This document shows, one piece after another, positions 14,366 to 37,242 of a stretch of DNA of 43,432 bases (position 1 is the stretch's first letter; each line of letters starts with the position of its first letter). Below the pieces are notes generated by a model. It was not told the DNA's origin, did not search any database, and saw nothing but the letters and a program-made list of their open reading frames with translations. Made by a program: the position numbers and the translations under genes. The stretch lies in the NCBI GenBank assembly GCA_937859535.1, contig CALLYL010000404.1, forward strand, positions 1 to 43,432, in the 5' to 3' direction. Source of the DNA: an uncultured Myxococcales bacterium (GTDB lineage Bacteria; Myxococcota_A; Polyangia; Palsa-1104; JAEUJZ01).

Positions 14366-15340
14366 TTAGGAACCGCCAATGCAAAATGGCTCCAGGGCCT
14401 GCATCCCACCGACGGGAAGCTTGCCTCCAGCGTTTGGCACACAGGCCAGCAGTCCCTTGTCACAGATGTATAGTCCAGCATTGCGTCCGGCCCCCGACTT
14501 CGCACAGTCCAGATCGGTCTGACAGCTCTGCAAGTAGTATCCTTTGACATCCATGGGCGTCAGTCCGTACTTGGGAACGCCGTAATAGGAGGCCTTACTC
14601 GGACGACAGACCGTGCTGGCAGAGTCCGCCACCGCGCAGTAACCAGTCGGCCACGGCACGTCGGTCTCACGCAGACAGACTCCGTTTGTTCCGCAACCGC
14701 CGTCTACCTTGCAGCTTGTTCCTAACTTGACCCCACAATTTGTCGGATCATTTCCCGGCGTCACTTGAACGTCACAGCGCTGCGGTAGCGCGATCGGATA
14801 GATGCCCGCAGGGAGCACTCCGCCGGTTGGAGTAGCCCACGCGGGCAGCTCTGCCGGGACATACAGAAAGACTCGATTGGGAAGGACTCCCATGAACGCA
14901 TCGCCCGAGGAATAGCGACCATCCTGGTCATTGTCCAGATAGGCCAGGATTCGCCCCGCCGCGAAGCCACGGCTCAATCCGGATGGGGTCCGCGCAATAT
15001 GCTCCGCCCCCGGATATTCATACATGTTGAGCAAGAAGGGCGTGGATGCCAGTCCAACCAGGCCGCTACTCAACTGCTCCACATATTGAGTGGGATCGGT
15101 GCCGGTGTCTCCCTGCGGGTTCCAAAACATCGCGATCCGTAGTTCGGTTGAGCTGGTCAGCTTGGGGTCGCTGATCTCCAGCCCACCGGAAAACTGCCAC
15201 AGCGACTTTCCGCGAAACTGCTGATCGACCAGTGGCTCACCACAGGCACTGAGCGCAAGCAACAGACCCAGCGCCAGCCCGCTTTTCGCGACTCCCATCC
15301 CTACACTGTGTACCATTGGTAGGTTTGTTAGAAACGCCAT
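14366..15340 (-). CDS. Lipoprotein with a DxDxDG-type loop and a Cys-rich C-terminal domain
   Basis: Start set at ATG 15340 (GGAGGGGGAAT-ATG Shine-Dalgarno), 13 nt inside the upstream gene's end. Lipobox 'LLLALSAC'. 'DNDQDGRYSSGD' loop. About 14 Cys in the last 130 aa. Confidence 0.7.
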   Translation of the reverse strand: MAFLTNLPMVHSVGMGVAKSGLALGLLLALSACGEPLVDQQFRGKSLWQFSGGLEISDPKLTSSTELRIAMFWNPQGDTGTDPTQYVEQLSSGLVGLASTPFLLNMYEYPGAEHIARTPSGLSRGFAAGRILAYLDNDQDGRYSSGDAFMGVLPNRVFLYVPAELPAWATPTGGVLPAGIYPIALPQRCDVQVTPGNDPTNCGVKLGTSCKVDGGCGTNGVCLRETDVPWPTGYCAVADSASTVCRPSKASYYGVPKYGLTPMDVKGYYLQSCQTDLDCAKSGAGRNAGLYICDKGLLACVPNAGGKLPVGGMQALEPFCIGGS

Positions 15341-16968
15341 ATTCCCCCTCCAGCCAGCCACCACGTGAACACCGAGCGAGTCTGCGCAGTTTGCTCCGCA
15401 CCGTTCATGAGCACCGCCTGATTCAACAGACTCGCGCTCGGCCCGCCTTCCAAGCGCATGCCGACTCCACGAAACATTTGTCGCTCCAACGCAAACAGCG
15501 CCGAAAATCCGATGCCGAAGGAATTGCGCGACTGCACCTGGCGGAGTGTCGGAGCAAAGCGCTGGGCATACCAAGTTCCTTCGATCGTCACTCCGAATGC
15601 CAAGCTAAACCACGGCAAGTCGACATAGCGTTGCAGAACGGCCGCCAGACCGAGTTCATACTGTCGCGAAGCAAGACCGCCATCGATAGACATCAGCGAT
15701 GCAGTGCTTCCTCGCAATCTCGCCCCTACGGTCAACCAGGGCAGGTCCGCAGCGTACCCAAGCAGCACATTGGGGGTCGGTCCTTGACCCGCCAGGATCT
15801 CTCCCCGTCCACCAAACAGCAGGTTCAGACCATGTACGGAAGTACGCGTTCCTCCCCGCTTGCGTACCAGTTGATCGTAACGAACGGAGCGATACGGCAA
15901 TGATGCCAGATCGACCTCTTGGCCCGGCACAAGCTCGATTTGATACTCTCTGAATTCGTAACTCCCTCGTCGCTGAATGAAGTATTTTCCACGCGGTAGC
16001 GCGATCACTCCCTGGTTGCGTGTGGTGGTTAGTTCCGCAACCACGGCACCACTTTCGCGCTCCTCCGTAACCAGATACATGCTGGCATCGGCCAGTCGCA
16101 AGCGACCCAGATTGTGTTCGGCACCAGTCAGCGTAGTCAGGACCAGATCACCACTTCCTTTGACATCGTACGCATAGGTTGGGTGTTGGAGCTGAAGCGT
16201 CTGTCCGCTCGATCGCAGAGTCTGCGCATAGCTATAGGCATATGCTTCCGAGAGGGTCACCCTTCCATCGCCGTTGCGATCTGCCGCGCCCCGCAGCGCG
16301 TTGACCAGGTGATGCGAAAAGAACGAAGCGCGCAGCCGATCGGACTCCTGACTGGACTCCCCCGCCGTGCTGGAAGAGATCATCGCGGTGCCTTCTGCTT
16401 CGACCCGATCCTCCAGCTTGATCGCAAACTCAGGGACACTGCGAACCCCTTTTACGCGAGTCACAGCCCCTGAACGACAGGCATCAACCACCAGCAGTCT
16501 CATCGTTGCGGGCGAGCCAGATACCAGTCCTCGTAGCTCTTCAATGGGAAGCCTGGTGCCGCGCAGGTGAAGTGATTCCGCATCCGCGTGACCCGAGTAG
16601 AACACCAGCAGCGCAGTGGTTTTGCCATCCGCAGACCTGGCCCGTAGTCCAGCGTTTACATTGACCAGCGCACGACGAACGGTCTCGGCACTCTCATCGA
16701 TGAGAATCCGAACTCGGTCGGATGCAATGTTGCCTTGGGTGCGCAGAACTTCGGCGAATTCTCTGGCATCGCGCTCCCCGTATAGCAACTGTATCTCGTC
16801 GGCATCCCCCCGGTTATTGCCCACCACAATCAGCCAGCTTTCATCAGGGAGTGCATGGACCCGCATTCCCCAAAGCAGGATTATCAGACCTGCGAGCAGA
16901 GAAAGCGAATGACGCATGTTGCGACTGATTCTGTGGCCGATTTTCTTATGTAGCAGAGCACGCTTCAT
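15328..16968 (-). CDS. Secreted caspase-family (peptidase C14) protein with a C-terminal outer-membrane beta-barrel-like domain
   Basis: Signal peptide 'LSLLAGLIILLWGMRVHA'. Catalytic dyad contexts 'LLVFYSGHA' (His) and 'LLVVDACRSGA' (Cys). Canonical EF-hand loop 'DRNGDGRVTLSE'. The last ~190 aa show an alternating amphipathic strand pattern ending 'GGGIWRF' (terminal Phe). The start ATG overlaps the upstream stop (ATGA at 16965-16968). Confidence 0.8.
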   Translation of the reverse strand: MKRALLHKKIGHRISRNMRHSLSLLAGLIILLWGMRVHALPDESWLIVVGNNRGDADEIQLLYGERDAREFAEVLRTQGNIASDRVRILIDESAETVRRALVNVNAGLRARSADGKTTALLVFYSGHADAESLHLRGTRLPIEELRGLVSGSPATMRLLVVDACRSGAVTRVKGVRSVPEFAIKLEDRVEAEGTAMISSSTAGESSQESDRLRASFFSHHLVNALRGAADRNGDGRVTLSEAYAYSYAQTLRSSGQTLQLQHPTYAYDVKGSGDLVLTTLTGAEHNLGRLRLADASMYLVTEERESGAVVAELTTTRNQGVIALPRGKYFIQRRGSYEFREYQIELVPGQEVDLASLPYRSVRYDQLVRKRGGTRTSVHGLNLLFGGRGEILAGQGPTPNVLLGYAADLPWLTVGARLRGSTASLMSIDGGLASRQYELGLAAVLQRYVDLPWFSLAFGVTIEGTWYAQRFAPTLRQVQSRNSFGIGFSALFALERQMFRGVGMRLEGGPSASLLNQAVLMNGAEQTAQTRSVFTWWLAGGGIWRF

Positions 16969-19220
16969 GGCTTCAGAAACTCATCGACAGAGACACTTCC
17001 AAGGCGACCGGCAGCTCCGGCATTATACAAGGAGACATGCGAACCAGCGATGCGAAGATAGACCTCGGTATAGAGTGAGGACAGCATGGGAACCGGTGAC
17101 TTGCTCATCAGGTTCACCACCTGATTCGAGAACGCATCATTGACCCACGAGCCCACCTCGGCATCGTAGGCCCCTGCGTAGGACACCTCTCGACTGTGCG
17201 CGGCACTGAGGAGAACCGTTCCGGCCAGCGGTGTCATCGCTCCGCTCGCCCCGCAGCCTAGCTCGATACCGCCATAGGAAGCGTCCCCGAACGCTCCACC
17301 GTAGCAGCTCTCGACAACGACCAGCGCCCGACGCAGACGGCCTTCGGTTTGCAGCACACACAGAGCTTCGCGAAGATGTTTCGGAGAAAACGTCGAGCCA
17401 CTCGCCTTGAGTCCCTCCGCTGGAGAGCTGGCTGCAATCGGGATTCCTTGGTTGCCACCATGGCCCACCAGATAGATGTACAGGTTGCTCGCCGATGTAG
17501 TACGGATGACTTGTGGAGTGCGATCTGAAACCTGCCCGGTGATGATGCTGGTCAGATCGGTCGGGTTCACCAGCAGGTTATAGTCACGCACCACCCCACG
17601 ATAGAGATTCGGCCCACCGGGTTCGTTCCGCACCGTGCCTGCCAAGGGATTGCGGATTGAAGTGGCCAGATCATCCGCCATGATGAGCACGATGTGATCG
17701 TCTTCAAAGCCCTGGGCCCGCAGGAGCTGATACTGACGGAGCGCATCGGCTTGATGCCGGTAGTTGCTCCATCCTGAAGACAACGCGGCAATCACCGCCC
17801 AGGAGTCTCCCTTATCCACCTTGGGAGTCCAGGCGCTGCCACCGAGATCGCTTTGGAACGCTCGATTGGGAGGCACAAACACTCCGCTGCTGCTCAGAAA
17901 AGCCGGATCTCCGGTGAAGTAGCGGCGGTCTGTTTGCGGTCCCTGCGGAGTCATTCGCCAGTGTGTCAGCGTTGATGATGACAGATCCACATAGAGTCCC
18001 GGTTCGAACTGAAGCGGCCCCGTTGCACCCGGAATTCGCGGTCGGTGCCCCTGTGCAAGCAAAGACAGTGCGCTCGCAATTCCTGCTTGATCCCAACCAC
18101 TCACCCCATCCTCTCGACCATCCACCACTGACTTCAGGGCGTCGACCAGCACCTGTCCTCCTTGCCCTCCCGAAGCGGCCAGTCCGTACGCAAGAAGGAG
18201 TATCGCGTCATACTCATTGGGACCATGCGGAGCAAGGCGCGCACCACCAAAGCGGCTGTGGAAGGCTTGCTCGAACTGCTCCGTCCCCGCGCCGCTGAGT
18301 CCTTCGATTCGCATGGCTTCTGGACCCAACTTGGTCAGGCTATTGGTATCAAGTCCGGTGTCCGCAAGCATCACCCGTGGACCAGGATTTTGCGCCAGCT
18401 TATGAAGGATGCAGTCCTGTTCCTGAGTTGCACCGGCAGCGATGAAAACGATATCTGGAGCACTGCTCACGGCGGACTGCACCGCAAGGTCACACGCCTC
18501 TCCTTTGGCAAAGGCAGAGATCGAAATTGCATCATCTGCGTAGCCCAGCTCTTTGGCGAAAAACCCGAACCAGGAAAAGAAAGTGTATCCGCCGTTATCG
18601 AGGGTGCTGATCAATGCCAGCCGTTTCAATCCCTCCTGTTTGGCCATACGAACCAGCAGCTCTGTCTGCGCGATGTCAGACTGCCTTGTCCGCCAGATCA
18701 CGCCTTTGCCGCCATACGCACGGAGGATCTCAGCAGCCGCAGAAGTCGTCGACACCAGCGGCTTGTTCGCAGCCAGATAGGAGTCCGCCACCGCTGCCAA
18801 CATCTCCGAACCAGGAGGGGCAATTGCCGCAACATAGCGATCATTGGAAGCGACTCCTTGGCTGATCTCGATGATTGCGCTGAGGTCTTTGCCGGTAAAG
18901 TCGAAGTATTCTAGCTTCAGCGGGCGACCGGCCACTCCTCCTGCCGCGTTCACCAGTTCCGCAGCCCAGTCCATGTTCGGATGTGCGAGTGGAGTCGCTC
19001 CGGCAGACCCCATGCTCATATTCATGCCCGGGGGCGGGTCGGTTGCGCCCATGGTTGAAGGGGCAGCAATTCCCATCAGCACCGCAATGCGCAGCGGCTC
19101 GGTACCCGAACCACAGGCCGAAAGGACACAGGTCATCATGGACCAGGCCAATAGCAAGAAACAGTGTTCGACAATCACTGACAGAGGTCTATTCGCACAG
19201 CGGGTCCAGGTGGCTGACAT
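16965..19220 (-). CDS. Lipoprotein fusing a type-I periplasmic binding protein domain (Leu/Ile/Val-binding / ANF-receptor-like) to a legumain-type (peptidase C13) domain
   Basis: Start at ATG 19220 (GAGGAG 5 nt upstream). Lipobox 'VLSAC'. PBP-like 'LRIAVLMG...AAELVNAAGGVAGRPLKLEYFD'. Legumain motifs 'WAVIAALSSGWSNYRHQAD', 'IVLIMADD', 'LYRGVVRDY', 'YLVGHGG' (His), 'VVVESCYGG' (Cys). Confidence 0.8.
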   Translation of the reverse strand: MSATWTRCANRPLSVIVEHCFLLLAWSMMTCVLSACGSGTEPLRIAVLMGIAAPSTMGATDPPPGMNMSMGSAGATPLAHPNMDWAAELVNAAGGVAGRPLKLEYFDFTGKDLSAIIEISQGVASNDRYVAAIAPPGSEMLAAVADSYLAANKPLVSTTSAAAEILRAYGGKGVIWRTRQSDIAQTELLVRMAKQEGLKRLALISTLDNGGYTFFSWFGFFAKELGYADDAISISAFAKGEACDLAVQSAVSSAPDIVFIAAGATQEQDCILHKLAQNPGPRVMLADTGLDTNSLTKLGPEAMRIEGLSGAGTEQFEQAFHSRFGGARLAPHGPNEYDAILLLAYGLAASGGQGGQVLVDALKSVVDGREDGVSGWDQAGIASALSLLAQGHRPRIPGATGPLQFEPGLYVDLSSSTLTHWRMTPQGPQTDRRYFTGDPAFLSSSGVFVPPNRAFQSDLGGSAWTPKVDKGDSWAVIAALSSGWSNYRHQADALRQYQLLRAQGFEDDHIVLIMADDLATSIRNPLAGTVRNEPGGPNLYRGVVRDYNLLVNPTDLTSIITGQVSDRTPQVIRTTSASNLYIYLVGHGGNQGIPIAASSPAEGLKASGSTFSPKHLREALCVLQTEGRLRRALVVVESCYGGAFGDASYGGIELGCGASGAMTPLAGTVLLSAAHSREVSYAGAYDAEVGSWVNDAFSNQVVNLMSKSPVPMLSSLYTEVYLRIAGSHVSLYNAGAAGRLGSVSVDEFLKP

Positions 19221-19360
19221 GGTGACTCCTCTCACAGCGGACGACCTCTTAGCGTATCGTGAATCGGCAGTACGTAAGACCCCCATCGACACGATTTGGG
19301 CAAGCACAGGCTGGCGCAAAACCCCACGGTGCGCGCCCTGGCTGCTGCTACAGTAGCGGC

Positions 19361-20659
19361 ATGCACAGTTCAAAGGTGGCGGCGGGTGAAACCGCAACGT
19401 CAAGCAAGCCGCTCGCCGGTAAACGCGTCGTTCTCGGTATCTCGGGCGGAATTGCTGCGTACAAAGCCGCCGAGCTAACGCGCCTGCTTCGCCAGGCTGG
19501 CGCAACGGTTCACGTGGTGATGACCCATGCGGCCCAAGCGTTCATTCCACCGCTGACGCTCCAGACCTTATCGGGCAACCCGGTGGCGACAGAGCTGTTT
19601 GATCTGACGCAAGAATCCGAGATTGGTCACATCACGTTGGCCGATTCGGCGGACCTGCTGGTGATCGCACCGGCGACGGCAGACATTCTGGCAAGGCTAT
19701 CACTGGGGCTCGCCAGCGACTTGCTCACCACGGTTGCGCTGGCCTGTCAGGCACCGCTCCTGCTGTGTCCAGCGATGAACGTCAACATGTGGAACAAACC
19801 TCAGGTGCAGCAGCACGTGGCCCAGCTTGTCGCTTGGGGAGCGCACATCGTGGGTCCGGCTTCCGGAGAACTGGCCTGTGGCTGGATCGGTACCGGTCGA
19901 CTGGTCGAACCGACTGAAATCGTTGCGGCTGCCGAATCGGTGTTGGTGGCATCACAGCAGCATCAAGACCTACGTGGTCGCTGGGTAGTCATCACCGCCG
20001 GCCCGACCTACGAGGCGATTGATCCGGTGCGCTTTATCGGCAACCGTTCGTCGGGAAAAATGGGGTTTGCGCTCGCAGCGGATGCGGCGCAGCGGGGTGC
20101 CGAGGTTACTCTGGTCGCCGGTCCGGTCGCGCTGGAGACGCCGCCGGGGGTGCACCGCATCAACGTCGAAAGCGCCAGGGAGATGTCGCAAGCTGTGCTG
20201 CCACTCCTCGATCGAACCCGAGCGCCGGATTGTATTGTGATGGCCGCTGCCGTTGCTGATCACCGACCGAGCGAGGTCGCCCCACGCAAGCGCAAGAAAC
20301 AGGACTTGGGGCCACATCCGACCATCGCGCTCACCGAAAACCCCGACATCCTGCGATCCCTCGGACAGAAGCGGCGCAGCGGCCTGCCTTTGCTGGTCGG
20401 TTTTGCCGCCGAGACGCATGAGGTCGAAGCCTATGCCCGTCGCAAGATCTTGGAAAAAGGCTGTGATGTGATCATCGCCAACAACGTCGCCGAAGACGGT
20501 AGCGGCTTTGGCACCGACACCAACCGGGTCACCATCTTGACCCGACACGCCGGTGATTCCATCGATGTCCTGGCGCTACCGCTGCTCAGCAAGAGTGCGG
20601 TCGCCGACAAAATCTGGAGTCATATCGTCCCGCTGCTCCCGAGTAGTGTTCCCCAGTAA
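19361..20659 (+). CDS. coaBC: Bifunctional phosphopantothenoylcysteine decarboxylase / phosphopantothenate-cysteine ligase
   Basis: 'KRVVLGISGGIAAYKAAELTRLL', 'CPAMNVNMW', 'RFIGNRSSGKMG'. Start at ATG 19361. The longer ORF from 19259 adds an implausible Arg/Pro-rich leader. Confidence 0.9.
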   Translation: MHSSKVAAGETATSSKPLAGKRVVLGISGGIAAYKAAELTRLLRQAGATVHVVMTHAAQAFIPPLTLQTLSGNPVATELFDLTQESEIGHITLADSADLLVIAPATADILARLSLGLASDLLTTVALACQAPLLLCPAMNVNMWNKPQVQQHVAQLVAWGAHIVGPASGELACGWIGTGRLVEPTEIVAAAESVLVASQQHQDLRGRWVVITAGPTYEAIDPVRFIGNRSSGKMGFALAADAAQRGAEVTLVAGPVALETPPGVHRINVESAREMSQAVLPLLDRTRAPDCIVMAAAVADHRPSEVAPRKRKKQDLGPHPTIALTENPDILRSLGQKRRSGLPLLVGFAAETHEVEAYARRKILEKGCDVIIANNVAEDGSGFGTDTNRVTILTRHAGDSIDVLALPLLSKSAVADKIWSHIVPLLPSSVPQ

Positions 20660-27803: not shown

Positions 27804-29212
27804 CCCGACTCGACTACTCCCAGACGCTGCGCTACCTGGCAGCGCTCTCCCCACTGGGCATTCAGCCCGGCCTCGAACGGATCGCCGAGGTGCTGCGTCG
27901 ACTGGATTCCCCCGAGAAGCGATTTCCCGCCGTTCACATCGCCGGTACCAATGGCAAAGGCTCGACAGCAGCCTACGCAGCGACGATCGCCCAGGTAGCC
28001 GCCCGTCGCGCCGAGACGAGCCATGGTCGCCCGTTCACCATCGGACTGTATACCTCGCCACACCTTCACCGGCTGACCGAGCGAATCCAATTTTCGCAGT
28101 CGGGACAACTTGGTGAATGCCCCCCCGACCGGCTTGCCGAGGCAGTCTGTGCCGTCCGCGACGCCGCCGAGTCGGCCCCCAGCGTGTCGTTGACCTTCTT
28201 CGAGGTGCTAACGGCCGCCGCCCTGCTCCTGTTCGCTCGATCCCACGTCGACTTGGCGATCATCGAAACGGGACTTGGCGGACGGCTCGATGCAACGCGG
28301 CTGTGTTGTGCACAAGCCACGGTGGTGACCAGCATTGGACTGGACCACATGGACTGGCTCGGACCGACGTTGTCCGATATCGCTGCCGAAAAAGCTGGTA
28401 TTTTTCGAAAAAATGTGCCTGCACTCTGCTCCTGTCTCGACGAATCCGCCCGGCTGGTGCTATCGCAGCATGCGCGTCGAGTGGGAGCGCCGCTGTGGCT
28501 GCATCCCTTCCACGACGAGCCGGAAATCCAGCCGCTCCCACCACTTACGGACCAGTTGGCGCAGGCACTGCCGCTTCTCGGCACGCATCAGCATGGCAAC
28601 GCCGCTCTCGCCATCGCTGCGCTCAGCCATGTGGCTGGACCTCTCCATCCGTTTTTGACCGATCCCGAGATCCTCCGCGAAGGGCTTTTGCAGACTCGCT
28701 GGCCGGGCCGCATCGAGCGCATCTCAGCGACAGCGAAACGCTACTTGGACTTTGCTGACCGCGAGATCCTGATCGACGCAGCTCACAATCCCGAAGGGGC
28801 GGCGGCGCTCGCAAGTTGGCTCATGTCGACGGAGAAGCGACCGCTGACGGTGCTCTGTGGGGTTGTCATCGGCAAGCTGACCACCGGCATGGCAGAGCCG
28901 CTGCGCGACGCAGCCTCGGTAGTGCTCTGTAAACCCCCGACGCCTCGTGGTCTGTCCGCCACCGATCTGGCCCGACAGCCCGAATTTGGTGTTGGCGAGC
29001 CGATCGAGGACTGGCAAGCCGCGCTCCTCACCGCACTGCAGCGCACGCCCCCCGGTGGACGCCTGCTGGTCTACGGATCGATCTTTCTGATTGGTGCCGT
29101 AAGAGCCGCTCTGCTCGATGAATCGACCGACGAACTGCTGGTGCAAGATCCTGGTCGCCCCACTACGCCGCCGGCCGCGCCGCAGCCCCCAACGCCAGCA
29201 GTTCTCCCGTGA
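27800..29212 (+). CDS. folC: Bifunctional folylpolyglutamate synthase / dihydrofolate synthase
   Basis: 'VHIAGTNGKGST' P-loop, 'YTSPHL', 'ETGLGGRLDAT', 'DAAHNPEGA'. GTG start overlaps the accD stop (GTGA). accD-folC synteny as in E. coli. Confidence 0.9.
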
Positions 29213-29837
29213 CCTCGACGGCCTGAAGTAGTTGAACCTGTTCCGTGGGATCGCGAATCAGCTCTGCCGTCTGTTCCAGCAGTTTCTTCAGCTCGTGCGG
29301 ATCTTCCGACTCCCGCAGTAGCAACCAGCGCATCGCCTCGCGGGGAACACTGCCCACCGACAACAGTCGAACCACCGTCGAGCTTACTTCGGCAGCCACG
29401 CCAAACAGGGCCAGCATAACCCCCAGCATCGCATAGGGCCTTTCACCGCTCACGTTCGAGCAATATGCCCGCAGCGCCGCATCCCCCGAGGTCACCGGTC
29501 GCTCGGGCAGCTCATCCGAATAGCCGAGCCGTCTCAAATCGGACATCACAAGCTGGATGCGCGCTTTTTCCTCACGCTGGTGTGCCAGGAGCAACGCCGC
29601 CACCCTCGGATCCGCAACTCGCTCACCGGCGCGTCCCAGCACATCCTGAATCAGGTCGCTCTGCTGCGCAAAGTCGAGCAGAAACGCCGCATATTTGGCC
29701 CGCAGCGAGAGCGGTGGTCGCATCAGATAGCGTACCGTCGCCATTTTGTAGCTACGAGCAGAAGCAGTCACTCGGTTATTGAGAGCCTCGACCATCTGCA
29801 TCGGCGTCTTGGGCTGGCTAGGAGCCACTTTGGCCAT
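29163..29837 (-). CDS. Hypothetical all-alpha protein (possibly heme-oxygenase-like fold)
   Basis: 224-aa ORF with helical composition. No motif I can name. Its 3' end overlaps the folC 3' end by 50 nt (convergent). Confidence 0.5.
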   Translation of the reverse strand: MAKVAPSQPKTPMQMVEALNNRVTASARSYKMATVRYLMRPPLSLRAKYAAFLLDFAQQSDLIQDVLGRAGERVADPRVAALLLAHQREEKARIQLVMSDLRRLGYSDELPERPVTSGDAALRAYCSNVSGERPYAMLGVMLALFGVAAEVSSTVVRLLSVGSVPREAMRWLLLRESEDPHELKKLLEQTAELIRDPTEQVQLLQAVEVTGELLALGAAARPAA

Positions 29838-34119: not shown

Positions 34120-34524
34120 TCAAACTGCCCGCTCGAGGTGCGACATCGCCTTTCGAGTCTTGGTCAGCACCATTCCGATGTTCGCGCTCTTGCGACAAAC
34201 GAAACAGGCGACATGATTTTGGTTTGATCGCGCCCTCACGAACACGTGGAGCAGCGTATCGGAAAAGACAATCATCTCCTGAAAGTAATGCTGTCCATCG
34301 TCCTTCACACCACGGGTTCTACGGAACAGCTTCTCGATGGCAGTCACCGTGCTCCCTTGAATGAGCTCTGCCGTTGCCACCGCAACCAGCTCTAACACTT
34401 CGTGCGGATGGGAATCGATCGTCTTGACCGCCAACAATGCTCCTGTGGACATCTCCACATATCCCGCAGCGACACAGTCTGGAATGTCACGCATAGATTG
34501 TTGAATCACACTCTGAAGTTGCAT
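34120..34524 (-). CDS. Roadblock/LC7 (MglB-like) domain protein (tentative)
   Basis: 134 aa from ATG 34524. The pattern 'IPDCVAAGYVEMSTGALLAV...EMIVFSDTLLHVFVR...NIGMVLTKTRKAMSHL' fits the alpha-beta-alpha Roadblock layout. Motif-level call only. Confidence 0.45.
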   Translation of the reverse strand: MQLQSVIQQSMRDIPDCVAAGYVEMSTGALLAVKTIDSHPHEVLELVAVATAELIQGSTVTAIEKLFRRTRGVKDDGQHYFQEMIVFSDTLLHVFVRARSNQNHVACFVCRKSANIGMVLTKTRKAMSHLERAV

Positions 34525-34710
34525 GATGATGAGACGTTCCCTTGTTTCGACGTGAAGGGAGACAGGAATTATCATTCAACGGACTGAATCATGTCCTGCC
34601 GCGGAGGCACAGAGATAGCAGAAAACACGGAACTTACAATCAGAACTTATAGGTCATTATAATCATTAACAAAAATCGCCTACGCCACCATGGTTCGACC
34701 AACTGTGCCA

Positions 34711-34732
34711 ATTGAGAGCATATGCTCTCAAT
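34711..34732. promoter_or_regulatory. Perfect 22-bp palindrome ATTGAGAGCATATGCTCTCAAT, a candidate dimeric-regulator operator in a divergent intergenic region
   Basis: Reverse complement is identical. It lies in the ~40% GC spacer between the divergent genes starting at 34524 (-) and 34900 (+). An ATTATAAT (TATAAT readable on both strands) lies at 34656-34663. Confidence 0.45.
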
Positions 34733-34899
34733 CCGGTCACTTTCATTCACCACCGACGCACAGCCTCTGTATGAGAAAACCAGTGCAATATCAGCTTAAT
34801 ATGAATTAAGCGCTCAAAATTGCTCAATCAAATCCAACATTGATGTACTATACGATGCTGAGCTTCATGAAATAGGGGTCAGCGCAGCAGAGGTCGGCC

Positions 34900-36720
34900 A
34901 TGATCAACAAACCTCCCCATAGGTCAGTTTATTCATTTATTCATAAGATCCCCCATCTGGATGATGAAGAACTCACCACCGACTTCAATGTTACTGATGC
35001 CGACGAATTGCCCCCTATGCCTTCCTCTATCCCATCCGGAAGGTCATTTGACCCGCTTGGAACACTGTCGGAGCTTAACCATCAGGATGCATTTCGTGCT
35101 CTTCATGAACAGCCGGTCGATCCTGATCCATCGGTTCAAATCGCGGTATCCAGTCGCAGTGTAAACGATGAGTCGGTATCGACGCCTTGGGTCATAGGTG
35201 CCCCAGACCCGCAAGCGTCCAGTGAGTCGCTATCGATTCAGTTTACGCAAAGCAGTGCGTCGCCCCCTGACGTATCCAGCCCGGAGTCCGACATTTCCCT
35301 GGGATCGAGACAGAGTCTGCTCACGAATGACGAGGCCGAGTGTTCCGAAGACGACGCAGTATCCGGCACACAGCTCGGTACATCGGCAAAGTCGAGCAAG
35401 GAAGTCCTGTGGCAGACCCAGGAACCACTGCTGGCCCTTCGCAACATCACGCTGATGTATGGCGATCGACTACTCGTCAGAGAATTGGATCTGGACATTG
35501 GTAGCACGGGGCTCTACATCATCGTCTGCGCAGAGAGTTTCTGTCGCCGGTTGCTACCGATGATGCTGGCGGGAGTCATCAAGGGGGCCACCGTCCGCCT
35601 GGAAGGAAGCGTACTCTTTGCAGGAGAGAAGCTCGGTACCAAATCTCATCCTCAGCTTTGCACGATAAGCGCGAGCGAGCTGCTCATGACCTTGCGGGAG
35701 TTCTTCGGTCATGGTCAGGAAGATGACATCACCACGCGCATTCCCAAGCTCCTGTCTGGTACCGGGCTAGAGCACCTGAGCCAGCAGATGCATGAATGCA
35801 TTCACGGTCTCGATACGTATGCACGCCGCGCCGTGGCACTCATCCGAGCTGCCCTTGGTACAAGTCCCTTGCTGTGTCTCGATGGTCCGCTGGATGGACT
35901 TACTGATGAACCTTTACATTCGCTGGTCAGCCTCGTGCACCGGATCTCCGCAACTCGCGCGGTCCTGATTATGGAGTCTGAGCCAGGACCGTTCCTCACC
36001 ATGGCTCGCGGCGTGGCTTACTATCAAGACGGACGGATCGTGACCCAGTCCAACCCACAAGGCGTGGTCACAAGCTCTTCCAGGAAGGCACTGGGATCGC
36101 TCGCCGAGCCACTGTCACCCACCACGGTCCCTGCTCCACAGCAAATCCCTGCGCCATCGATGAGTGTTCACTCTGTACCTATTTCAGAACAGGAGCTGGA
36201 ACAACCACACCTGACGCCACGACCCACTGCGAATGGACAACAAGGCCCTCGCGGATTCCGTTGGTTGGTGCCAGGAAGTTTGGCGGGGACTCCCGAACCC
36301 GGCCTTCTGTTCGATATCGACTACGACTTGGCACTCCTCAAAGGAGCAGGGATCACCATGCTAGTCACCCTTACCGAACAGCCACTGCCAGAGTCTCTGC
36401 TCGAATCCCATGGACTCAAGAGTCTGTTCTTTCCGATCGTCGATATGAACGTGCCAAGCTGCCGCGCAACTGAGGATCTGTGCGCGTTGGTCGAAATGGC
36501 GCTCGAGCGGGGTGAAGTGATCGCATTCCACTGTAAGGCCGGCCTTGGTAGGACCGGTACGCTGCTCGTCTCCTACCTGATTTGGGAAGGCGCGCCCCCA
36601 GCCGAAGCACTACAAGTGGCCCGGTCGATCGAACCGGGCTGGGTACAGTCGCCAATCCAGGAGCAGTACTTGTTCGAGTTTGCTCAGTACTGCCAGCGTA
36701 AAACGCAGACTCGCTTGTAG
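34900..36720 (+). CDS. Three-part protein: acidic/Ser-rich disordered N-terminus, degenerate ABC-type ATPase (PstB-like) domain, Pro-rich linker, dual-specificity/PTP-like phosphatase domain
   Basis: ABC-like 'LALRNITLMYGDRLLVRELDLDI' but Walker A is 'CAESFCRRL' (vs GPSGCGKST), the signature is 'LDTYARR' (vs LSGGQQQR), and Walker B is 'LLCLDGP' (catalytic Glu replaced by Gly). Phosphatase P-loop 'HCKAGLGRTG' (CX5R) with upstream 'VDMNVP' general-acid Asp. GAGG 6 nt before ATG 34900. Confidence 0.75.
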   Translation: MINKPPHRSVYSFIHKIPHLDDEELTTDFNVTDADELPPMPSSIPSGRSFDPLGTLSELNHQDAFRALHEQPVDPDPSVQIAVSSRSVNDESVSTPWVIGAPDPQASSESLSIQFTQSSASPPDVSSPESDISLGSRQSLLTNDEAECSEDDAVSGTQLGTSAKSSKEVLWQTQEPLLALRNITLMYGDRLLVRELDLDIGSTGLYIIVCAESFCRRLLPMMLAGVIKGATVRLEGSVLFAGEKLGTKSHPQLCTISASELLMTLREFFGHGQEDDITTRIPKLLSGTGLEHLSQQMHECIHGLDTYARRAVALIRAALGTSPLLCLDGPLDGLTDEPLHSLVSLVHRISATRAVLIMESEPGPFLTMARGVAYYQDGRIVTQSNPQGVVTSSSRKALGSLAEPLSPTTVPAPQQIPAPSMSVHSVPISEQELEQPHLTPRPTANGQQGPRGFRWLVPGSLAGTPEPGLLFDIDYDLALLKGAGITMLVTLTEQPLPESLLESHGLKSLFFPIVDMNVPSCRATEDLCALVEMALERGEVIAFHCKAGLGRTGTLLVSYLIWEGAPPAEALQVARSIEPGWVQSPIQEQYLFEFAQYCQRKTQTRL

Positions 36721-36864: not shown

Positions 36865-37242
36865 TTACTTGGCGGGCTTCTCGGCGGGCTTCTCGGCCTT
36901 CTTCTCGGCCTTGTCAGCGACCTTCTCACCCTTCGCTTCGAGCTTCTCGCCCTTCTTCTCCATCTTCTCGCCAGCCTTCTCCATCTTCTCTCCGGCCTTC
37001 TCCATCTTCTCGCCGGCCTTCTCCATCTTCTTGTCGCCAGCCTTCTCGCCGGCCTTTTCCATCTTCTCGCCCTTCTTCTCTAGTTTCTCGCCCTTCTTCT
37101 CCATCTTCTCGCCCTTCTTCTCCATCTTCTCGCCAGCCTTCTCCATCTTCTCTCCGGCCTTCTCACCCTTGTTGGCAAGAGCGGGAGCGATGTTTCCGAG
37201 AGCGAACGCGGCGGCAACGGCGAGGACAATCTGCTTGTTCAT
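36865..37242 (-). CDS. Small secreted Lys/Glu/Met-rich heptad-repeat protein
   Basis: AGGAGA 7 nt upstream of the ATG. Signal peptide 'MNKQIVLAVAAAFALGNIAPALA'. The mature part is ~12 copies of EKMEKAG/EKMEKKG/EKLEKKG, then 'AEKKAEKPAEKPAK'. Confidence 0.75.
   Translation of the reverse strand: MNKQIVLAVAAAFALGNIAPALANKGEKAGEKMEKAGEKMEKKGEKMEKKGEKLEKKGEKMEKAGEKAGDKKMEKAGEKMEKAGEKMEKAGEKMEKKGEKLEAKGEKVADKAEKKAEKPAEKPAK
36868..37173 (-). repeat. In-frame 21-bp tandem repeat array (unit about CTTCTCCATCTTCTCGCCGGC on the plus strand) encoding the heptads
   Basis: Visible 21-nt periodicity over ~300 nt. It leaves two of the three opposite-strand frames open as well, giving the spurious ORFs 36801-37244 and 36869-37387. 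Confidence 0.8.

Follow-up and report, generated by a model that had tools for sequence, protein, structure and literature searches.

A degenerate ABC-type nucleotide-binding domain fused to a phosphatase, beside a gene with a predicted Roadblock fold, in an uncultured Myxococcales bacterium

The locus

The window analysed here is a stretch of 43,432 nucleotides from an uncultured Myxococcales bacterium (assembly GCA_937859535.1, contig CALLYL010000404.1, positions 1 to 43,432), and our subject is a gene at 34900..36720 on its plus strand in which a degenerate nucleotide-binding domain (NBD) of the ATP-binding cassette (ABC) type is fused to a dual-specificity phosphatase. The gene begins with ATG and encodes 606 amino acids (aa). 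A preliminary description of the same DNA had reported this open reading frame (ORF) and quoted peptides from it, both correctly, and the anatomy that it proposed, a dead NBD-fold domain followed by a Pro-rich linker and an apparently competent CX5R phosphatase, is borne out by profiles, fold prediction and alignment. Residues 1–168 (34900..35403) form a Ser-, Pro- and acid-rich N-terminal region predicted to be disordered (pLDDT 26–41). Residues 169–388 (35404..36063) form the pseudo-NBD, an ABC ATPase fold with degenerate motifs recognized by profile, fold and alignment. Residues 389–446 (36064..36237) are a Pro-rich linker, also predicted disordered (pLDDT <50 for residues 384–470), and residues 447–598 (36238..36693) are a Cys-based phosphatase domain resembling DUSP23 and Cdc14 (Pfam PF22785, 3.9e-19, and PF22784, 1e-16).

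Orthologues fall into 10 clusters, all metagenomic or from metagenome-assembled genomes (MAGs) of Polyangia/Myxococcales. Met1 is conserved in every one of them, so the start codon of the 606-aa ORF appears sound. The orthologue alignment shows short conserved motifs within the disordered N-terminus (FDDEE.T.DFNV, DELPP.P, RSFD.LGSL, QDAFRALH, SLSIEI, and SLGSRQSL), while the linker is poorly conserved and varies in length. At the window locus and at the orthologous loci, accD and folC adjoin, giving a stable chromosomal context.

Divergent from the fusion gene lies a small partner gene (34123..34524, minus strand) whose 134-aa product has a predicted Roadblock/LC7 fold. Its start is taken as Met18 of a 151-aa ORF (34120-34575), because the resulting 134 aa then match orthologues of 134–136 aa.

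A family of NBD-phosphatase fusions

With a single-NBD relative as query, a search retrieved at least 680 clusters of NBD-phosphatase fusions, from Myxococcota, Gamma- and Betaproteobacteria, and Persicimonas; Ahniella affigens is a cultured isolate with the module, which is also present in a Wenzhouxiangella assembly. From the other direction, the same phosphatase domain is found on ∼85 of the best 150 representatives of a middle-domain profile search, and longer paralogues of the window fusion were found when genomes were scanned for relatives. Database names are generic, namely “ATP-binding cassette domain-containing protein,” “atypical dual specificity phosphatase,” and “phosphatase domain-containing putative toxin.” The architecture, which had been thought undescribed, is thus widespread, and that view stands only insofar as we found no characterization of it in the literature.

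We distinguish three classes. Class A proteins have one intact PstB-like NBD followed by the phosphatase, in about 430–480 aa. In class B two NBDs, the first (NBD1) intact and the second (NBD2) degenerate, stand between an N-terminal domain and the phosphatase. Class C, the family of the window protein, has only a degenerate NBD and the phosphatase. The disordered N-terminus of the window protein found no homologue among more than 150 class-A and class-B proteins in a profile search with filters off.

Two side observations concern the N-terminal domain of class B. In P0016, a metagenomic class-B protein of 1456 aa, it is a Ser/Thr kinase, so that the order is Pkinase, NBD1, NBD2, phosphatase, with kinase and phosphatase in one polypeptide. 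Elsewhere the class-B N-terminal domain (∼330 aa; L005 6669-7700) has no Pfam match and is homologous (E 1e-6) to a separate gene directly upstream of a class-A gene, at L011 6729-7979; this fusion–fission relationship suggests that in Myxococcota the module has a third component.

Phosphatase domain

The window phosphatase scores 69.6 bits with PF22785 and 61.8 bits with PF22784, both well above cut-offs of 27, while the classical dual-specificity model PF00782 gives 26.5 bits, below its cut-off of 33.5. The catalytic residues are the general acid D515 (in PIVDMNVP), the nucleophile C545, and R551 (both in HCKAGLGRTG); all three align with the P-loop of DUSP23 and the Asp of its IPDFCPP loop (2img), and HCKAGLGRT (residues 544–552) and D515 are invariant in class C. 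Matches in the Protein Data Bank (PDB) comprise 25xa (1.8e-22), DUSP23 (2img, 2.8e-17), Cdc14 (1e-9), and, more distantly, PRL. Across class-C orthologues the domain remains 88–97% identical with saturated synonymous sites. The preliminary description had called the phosphatase apparently intact on the strength of its acid loop and P-loop; with the Pfam thresholds passed and the catalytic residues aligned to DUSP23, the domain is intact and predicted to be competent.

Middle domain

The ABC identity of the middle domain is not apparent from Pfam: ABC_tran (PF00005) gives no match to the window protein even at E≤1. About 25 NCBIfam models of ABC NBDs match weakly, the best being PotG (5.8e-6, residues 172–389), and a single-sequence search of the PDB with the middle domain returns NBDs almost exclusively (best 3e-4). 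A profile built from the middle domain of nine family members matches 146 distinct PDB sequences at E≤0.01 (best 1.4e-7); among the matches listed, 60/60 are ABC-type NBDs, and CydDC is one of the proteins matched. In that alignment “LETHE” lines up with the signature, and “LLCxDDP” with Walker B. In a library of 1.84 billion proteins the profile matches 7,975. The AlphaFold2 model of residues 170–385, computed from a 10-sequence alignment, is confident (pLDDT 80–93) and presents the RecA-like core and helical subdomain of an NBD. Foldseek places Escherichia coli PstB first (9k3s_C, E 3.3e-11, TM 0.67), and ABC NBDs account for 50/50 among the matches listed. The assignment therefore needed NCBIfam, the family profile, and the fold, since ABC_tran was silent, and by these means the ABC-like character claimed for the domain is upheld.

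A PstB-type origin, also proposed at the outset, agrees both with the top fold match and with the intact relatives, for which the PstB equivalog TIGR00972 is the best NCBIfam model (class-A relative L011: 2.9e-38, 131.6 bits against a cut-off of 343.2). TIGR00972 is not among the best NCBIfam matches of the window protein, which stays short of the PstB cut-off, and no pstSCA genes lie near the fusion gene.

Alignment with intact relatives confirms that Walker A is replaced and the H-loop His lost, as had been read from the sequence. At the Walker A site (209–217) the window protein has VCAESFCRRL(L), with neither Gly nor Lys, where intact relatives have GPGGxGKST, and GxxGxGK[ST] is missing from all 11 class-C clusters. 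The Q-loop Gln is lost (LCTISASE aligned with VxQ), and the H-loop site (357–362) reads IMESEP against VTHNQ. The signature site (304–308) is LDTYA rather than LSGGQ; the replacement had been described correctly, but it is nothing special to this protein, for LSGGQ is present in 0/140 NBDs aligned across the NBD-phosphatase family, intact ones included, and so was lost before the family radiated.

At the Walker B site (324–329) the window protein has LLCLDG and other class-C proteins have LLCxDD, with the Asp kept and the Glu lost. The change had been described as Glu to Gly; the loss of Glu holds, whereas the Gly is private to the window. Gly329, at the former catalytic position, is encoded by GGT (35884-35886), and the codon is GAT (Asp) in L019, in P0001, and in all orthologues; P0001 differs from the window protein at just three residues (Gly329 to Asp, I2V, and R605L). 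Gly329 is thus a private one-base variant, perhaps a polymorphism of the strain, perhaps an error in sequencing or assembly. On fold and descent, as read from sequence and model, the middle domain is an ABC NBD; by chemistry it would not be one, and it has probably lost nucleotide binding.

Descent of the pseudo-NBD

Among the tandem proteins, Walker A is present in NBD1 of 19/19 and in NBD2 of 0/19. Walker A decay is graded across the family, from GPGGxGKST in class A and in NBD1, through xPDGxxKRLL in NBD2, to CxExxCRRLL in class C. Like the window protein, NBD2 of class B is never matched by Pfam ABC_tran. The class-C profile scores 79–117 bits on NBD2 as against 40–72 bits on NBD1, and an N-terminal extension with (V/I)LW is common to class C and NBD2 only. 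The window phosphatase is 62–65% identical to those of class B and 42–55% to those of class A, and the partner protein is likewise nearest to class B (67–69% identity). Because the profile scores, the extension, and the affinities of both phosphatase and partner agree, we conclude that the window pseudo-NBD descends from NBD2. Judged by these sequence comparisons, class C is a class-B-like protein without the N-terminal domain and the active NBD1, and with a new disordered N-terminus. As only the degenerate NBD remains, the class is a reduced variant of the module, and the window gene is best explained by reduction of a paralogue with tandem NBDs, not by a pseudo-NBD having been joined to a phosphatase de novo.

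Several single-NBD phosphatase fusions outside class C (P0034, P0035, P0039, P0040, P0059, and P0103) also have no canonical Walker A, with such aberrant forms as IMPDGPEKRFL, LGAKGSGRTTL, and TCGSEQARSML, though some of these proteins may be truncated gene calls. Loss of the nucleotide site may accordingly have been repeated and independent within the family.

Selection on the domains

Ratios of nonsynonymous to synonymous substitution rates (dN/dS) were estimated by the Nei–Gojobori method for the window against L019 (dS ∼0.16) and L001 (dS 0.6–0.9). For the phosphatase they are 0.10 and 0.05, for the pseudo-NBD 0.21 and 0.27, for the N-terminal disordered region 0.55 and 0.28, and for the linker 0.64 and 0.38, respectively. 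In the less saturated comparisons the pseudo-NBD ranges over 0.17–0.28 and the disordered parts overall over 0.28–0.68; in the two most diverged pairs the pseudo-NBD reaches 0.32–0.47, synonymous sites there being near saturation. Within the replaced Walker A, C210, E212, R216, L218, and L219 are invariant in 10 sequences.

These data bear first on the reading of the middle domain as a functionless, decaying relic that serves as a spacer after loss of the active NBD. The loss of every catalytic motif, the private Asp-to-Gly change at Walker B, and a rate of evolution much faster than that of the phosphatase all accord with such a relic. Yet in the comparison with L019 the domain has a distinctly lower dN/dS than the disordered segments on either side, 30 positions are invariant among sequences only 34% identical, a 10-sequence alignment suffices for a confident fold, and the domain is present at full length in every class-C member. 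We regard a relic as very improbable: with dN/dS ∼0.2 and invariant residues in the replaced Walker A, the domain is maintained by selection, which fits a non-catalytic docking or regulatory role.

The same invariant residues could suit a ligand sensor, whose remodelled pocket (Cys210, Glu212, and Arg216) binds some other small molecule and controls the phosphatase allosterically; the ligand would be a nucleotide derivative, phosphate or polyphosphate, or a redox signal acting through the cysteines. Purifying selection on the domain is consistent with this, an Arg in place of the Walker A Lys keeps the positive charge, and the PstB-like lineage is linked to phosphate sensing. However, with all P-loop glycines gone the canonical phosphate-binding loop cannot form, and the conserved pocket residues suit a structural or interface role equally well. 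A sensor therefore seems to us unlikely, though it deserves to be kept in mind.

The partner gene

The partner adjoins the NBD-phosphatase gene in 23/23 sequences (22 loci and the window): tblastn found it in 20/20 (19 loci and the window), and three further loci were reached from the partner side, where three partner homologues picked blind to context had the NBD-phosphatase gene directly upstream in 3/3 cases. In classes A and B it follows the fusion gene on the same strand; in class C it lies upstream of that gene and is transcribed divergently. In the class-A loci L016 (the Wenzhouxiangella assembly), L017 (whose protein is named from Thiohalophilus thiocyanatoxydans), and L018 (in a genome of 7.5 Mb), a protein of the same size is encoded directly after the intact NBD-phosphatase gene. 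Across phyla, the window partner remains 55–59% identical to the class-A partners of L011 and L016–L018; another comparison, with L016–L018, gave 54–57% and E ∼1e-63. Where a MAG has a class-B gene as well as a class-C gene (L004 with L009, and L006 with L008), a partner copy lies beside each.

The partner family numbers at least 330 clusters, all of 134–137 aa and nearly all unnamed, though one UniRef entry is called “Roadblock/LAMTOR2 domain-containing.” By sequence the window partner has no Pfam match, Robl_LC7 (PF03259) included, and no Roadblock match in phmmer and profile searches of the PDB. Its AlphaFold2 model (pLDDT 84) has the topology alpha-beta-beta-alpha-beta-beta-beta-alpha, as in Roadblock proteins, and Foldseek places MglB first (1j3w and 3t1r; TM 0.70–0.72, E 3.7e-7), followed by LAMTOR and MglC. 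It is thus the predicted structure that settles the partner as a Roadblock/MglB fold, and the neighbour was rightly called Roadblock in the preliminary description by fold, though not by Pfam. We considered the partner as kin of the class-B N-terminal domain or of the gene upstream in L011 and found no similarity to either.

The constancy of this neighbour bears on the original proposal for the pseudo-NBD, that it docks onto the membrane domains of an ABC transporter or onto another NBD and so delivers the phosphatase; NBD1 of the class-B paralogue in the same genome would be a candidate for such an NBD. Its fold is that of a transporter NBD of PstB-like lineage, related MAGs with class-B as well as class-C genes mean that an NBD partner in trans exists, and a TonB-type outer-membrane protein is encoded upstream in the window. 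But no ABC permease gene lies beside the fusion in any of the 23 sequences, the one constant neighbour being the Roadblock-fold gene, and the outer-membrane protein is missing from the orthologous loci L012–L015. The Gln of the Q-loop, through which NBDs are coupled to membrane domains, is missing; Walker A and signature, both of them motifs of the dimer interface, are degenerate; and class B has its own NBD2 in cis. Docking onto a transporter is in our estimation improbable, and this part of the preliminary description is not sustained.

A small gene beside a C-terminal enzyme domain also recalls a toxin–immunity or defence pair, in which the phosphatase would be the toxin and the partner its immunity protein or antitoxin. 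The best Pfam match of the phosphatase, PF22785 (Tc-R-P), is named “polymorphic toxin system,” NCBI calls some relatives putative toxins, in classes A and B the small gene follows directly downstream of the enzyme domain, and ABC ATPases are known from defence systems. A Pfam scan of the window protein nonetheless finds no secretion or trafficking domain, and PADLOC returns nothing for the window protein and its partner, with only generic ABC-ATPase matches for relatives. Immunity proteins evolve fast, unlike a partner conserved to the degree seen here between the window and class A; the phosphatase is under very strong purifying selection (dN/dS ∼0.05), the chromosomal setting beside accD and folC is stable, and a Roadblock fold is typical of regulators of NTPases. 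We consider a toxin pair quite improbable, and the family names “putative toxin” and “ABC transporter ATP-binding protein” are probably misleading.

In the class-A loci L016, L017, and L020, a Ras-like small GTPase (ATP_bind_1) and a canonical Robl_LC7 gene are present in the same operon, and an Arf-family GTPase is found at L022; the link to GTPases is so far limited to these four class-A loci. Among the myxobacterial loci we found no homologue of the small GTPase, Robl_LC7, or the upstream gene at E<1e-4. The class-A operon (L016 4767-9891, L020 2317-7391 from Ahniella affigens, and L017 4282-8877) encodes, in order, an unknown protein, the ATP_bind_1 GTPase, the NBD-phosphatase, the partner, Robl_LC7, and a globin, either fused to a ferredoxin reductase or by itself. 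In L016 and L020 the operon is flanked by GGDEF/EAL genes, and a GGDEF gene is near that of L017. The globin and GGDEF/EAL context hints at redox or gas sensing that feeds the switch.

Shared intergenic region

The partner and fusion genes share a divergent intergenic region of 375 bp (34525..34899), for which five orthologous regions were aligned. It contains a perfect 20-bp palindrome, TTGAGAGCATATGCTCTCAA, at 34712-34731, present as a single copy in the window with 0 expected by chance and kept as TGAGARC-N4-GYTCTCA in L001–L004 and L019. About 100 bp away, at ∼34603-34624, is an invariant block with AGAGATA. The palindrome looks like an operator for some regulator, and palindrome and block together, in a region shared by both genes, suggest that the two are transcriptionally co-regulated.

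Interpretation

We lean towards reading the gene product as a phosphatase that has had its ancestral nucleotide switch disabled and that retains the pseudo-NBD as a scaffold acting together with the Roadblock partner. The product would be a cytoplasmic, Cys-based protein phosphatase of the DUSP23/Cdc14 kind, carried on a flexible linker from a dead NBD fold, and class C would be the reduced member of a two-gene module made up of a PstB-like NBD-phosphatase and the adjacent 134-aa Roadblock/MglB-fold protein. Where an NBD still has intact Walker A, Walker B, and H-loop, as in classes A and B, it probably works as a switch that depends on nucleotide and gates the phosphatase. Regulating NTPases, or serving as platforms for them, is an established or predicted role of Roadblock/LC7 proteins, e.g. 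MglB with MglA and CvnB with CvnD of the conservons (PMC4316618). By analogy with these pairs and with LAMTOR–Rag, the partner may be a regulator or dimeric platform of the NBD.

The class-C lineage, on this scheme, lost the N-terminal domain and NBD1 of a class-B arrangement, kept the degenerate NBD2, and gained a Ser-rich disordered N-terminus. Because the domain that was kept was already degenerate, the surviving pseudo-NBD is most likely a non-catalytic scaffold. It would hold the phosphatase together with the Roadblock partner and present it to substrates, offering a docking surface for the partner, the substrates, or both. Control may have moved from nucleotide turnover to expression, through the divergent promoter and its palindrome, and perhaps also to phosphorylation of the disordered N-terminus. 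Given the kinase fusion in P0016 and the DUSP23/Cdc14-like active site, we would expect protein substrates within Ser/Thr/Tyr kinase networks.

Several points weigh against the scaffold reading. The Walker A Lys has given way to an invariant Arg, which makes non-canonical ligand binding conceivable. The partner could bind the phosphatase rather than the NBD, these two being the slowest-evolving parts. The full-length AlphaFold2 model (pTM 0.42; phosphatase pLDDT 54–82) shows no confident mutual packing of the domains. The mechanism of the ancestral switch is itself uncertain, since even the intact NBDs have no LSGGQ. Finally, class-C synteny comes from a narrow clade of ∼11 clusters of Polyangia-like MAGs, so that adjacency within the class alone is weak and the argument from adjacency rests on the cross-phylum loci.

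More tentatively still, the NBD-phosphatase and its Roadblock neighbour may constitute an unrecognized bacterial switch in which an ABC-type NBD, instead of a Ras-like GTPase, is the nucleotide-gated element under Roadblock control and protein dephosphorylation is the output. Class C would then be a “locked” version, revealing contact between Roadblock protein and NBD, and not ATP turnover, as the indispensable core; this broader proposal is possible, but we would not count on it.

Relation to known systems

The pseudo-NBD shares its fold with the transporter NBDs PstB (9k3s), MlaF (6xbd), HrtA (7w7a), and CbiO (5x40) (Foldseek E ∼1e-10 to 1e-11, TM 0.6–0.75), and the motif positions follow one another in the same order and at the same spacing. 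It differs from them in that Walker A, the Q-loop Gln, LSGGQ, the catalytic Glu, and the H-loop His are all gone; the window protein as a whole differs in lacking a permease partner, in its fusion to a phosphatase, and in going unseen by ABC_tran. Degenerate sites are familiar from asymmetric ABC proteins such as CFTR (NBD1), TAP1, and CydDC. Class B is alike in combining a consensus NBD1 and a degenerate NBD2 in cis, whereas the degenerate NBD of the window protein stands alone and has decayed further, to the point of having no P-loop glycines and no Lys.

With DUSP23/VHZ, Cdc14, and the archaeal SsoPTP, the window phosphatase has in common the HCX5R(T) P-loop, the Asp loop, and a compact domain of ∼150 aa; its HCKAGLGRTG we take to be identical to the P-loop of Cdc14. 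Unlike DUSP23 and Cdc14, it is bacterial, C-terminal in a multidomain protein, and always beside a Roadblock-fold gene.

MglA/MglB, CvnB/CvnD of the Streptomyces conservons, and LAMTOR/Rag likewise combine a Roadblock-fold regulator with an NTPase. The partner described here is encoded beside a protein of P-loop NTPase fold, and the likeness to the MglA/MglB type extends in Gammaproteobacteria to an operon that also has a Ras-like GTPase and a canonical Robl_LC7. Here, by contrast, the neighbouring NTPase fold is of the ABC class and not Ras-like, and is dead in class C; the partner is unrecognized by Robl_LC7, and the myxobacterial loci yielded no GTPase gene. MlaF–MlaB is a further parallel: MlaFB structures rank high among the fold matches of the pseudo-NBD, and MlaB is a small alpha/beta protein of the cytoplasm that is encoded next to the NBD to which it binds. 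But MlaB is a STAS rather than a Roadblock protein and MlaF is an active transporter ATPase, so that the likeness is by analogy only.

In the literature searched as full text, in which few subscription journals are covered, we found no description of an ABC-NBD/dual-specificity phosphatase fusion or of the partner, and this does not prove that none exists. A survey of the myxobacterial phosphatome lists tyrosine phosphatases by COG and leaves ABC domains unmentioned (PMC2887360). The domains themselves, NBDs that do not serve transport, and degenerate NBD sites are already known; what appears to be new is a stand-alone dead NBD fused to a phosphatase with an obligate Roadblock-fold partner. 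A soluble NBD wired to a phosphatase and a constant Roadblock partner is an apparently unstudied use of textbook domains. If the proposed switch is real, regulation of NTPases by Roadblock proteins extends from Ras-like GTPases to ABC-class ATPases, and the module would be a new kind of regulated bacterial Tyr/Ser/Thr phosphatase with a bearing on the kinase-rich signalling of myxobacteria. Class C offers a natural dissection, in which fold, partner, and phosphatase outlive the nucleotide chemistry, and a clean bacterial example of a pseudo-enzyme domain under selection. The interest lies more in the module so revealed than in the single window protein.

Other genes in the window

Downstream of the fusion, at 36865-37242 on the minus strand, is a gene for 125 aa with a signal-peptide-like N-terminus and ∼10 Lys/Glu-rich heptads (GEKMEKA/K), the latter encoded by tandem repeats of 21/42 nt at 36943-37164. 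A gene of 68–142 aa, a counterpart by position, occupies the same site on the opposite strand in L001–L003, L012–L015, and L019. The 224-aa gene of the window (29163-29837) was considered as kin of the 224-aa first gene of the Wenzhouxiangella operon, and the two are unrelated. At 15328-19505 (minus strand) we note an unusual pair of adjacent genes, one for a caspase-family protease (Peptidase_C14, 546 aa) and the other for an 846-aa periplasmic-binding-protein/legumain-like Peptidase_C13 protein.

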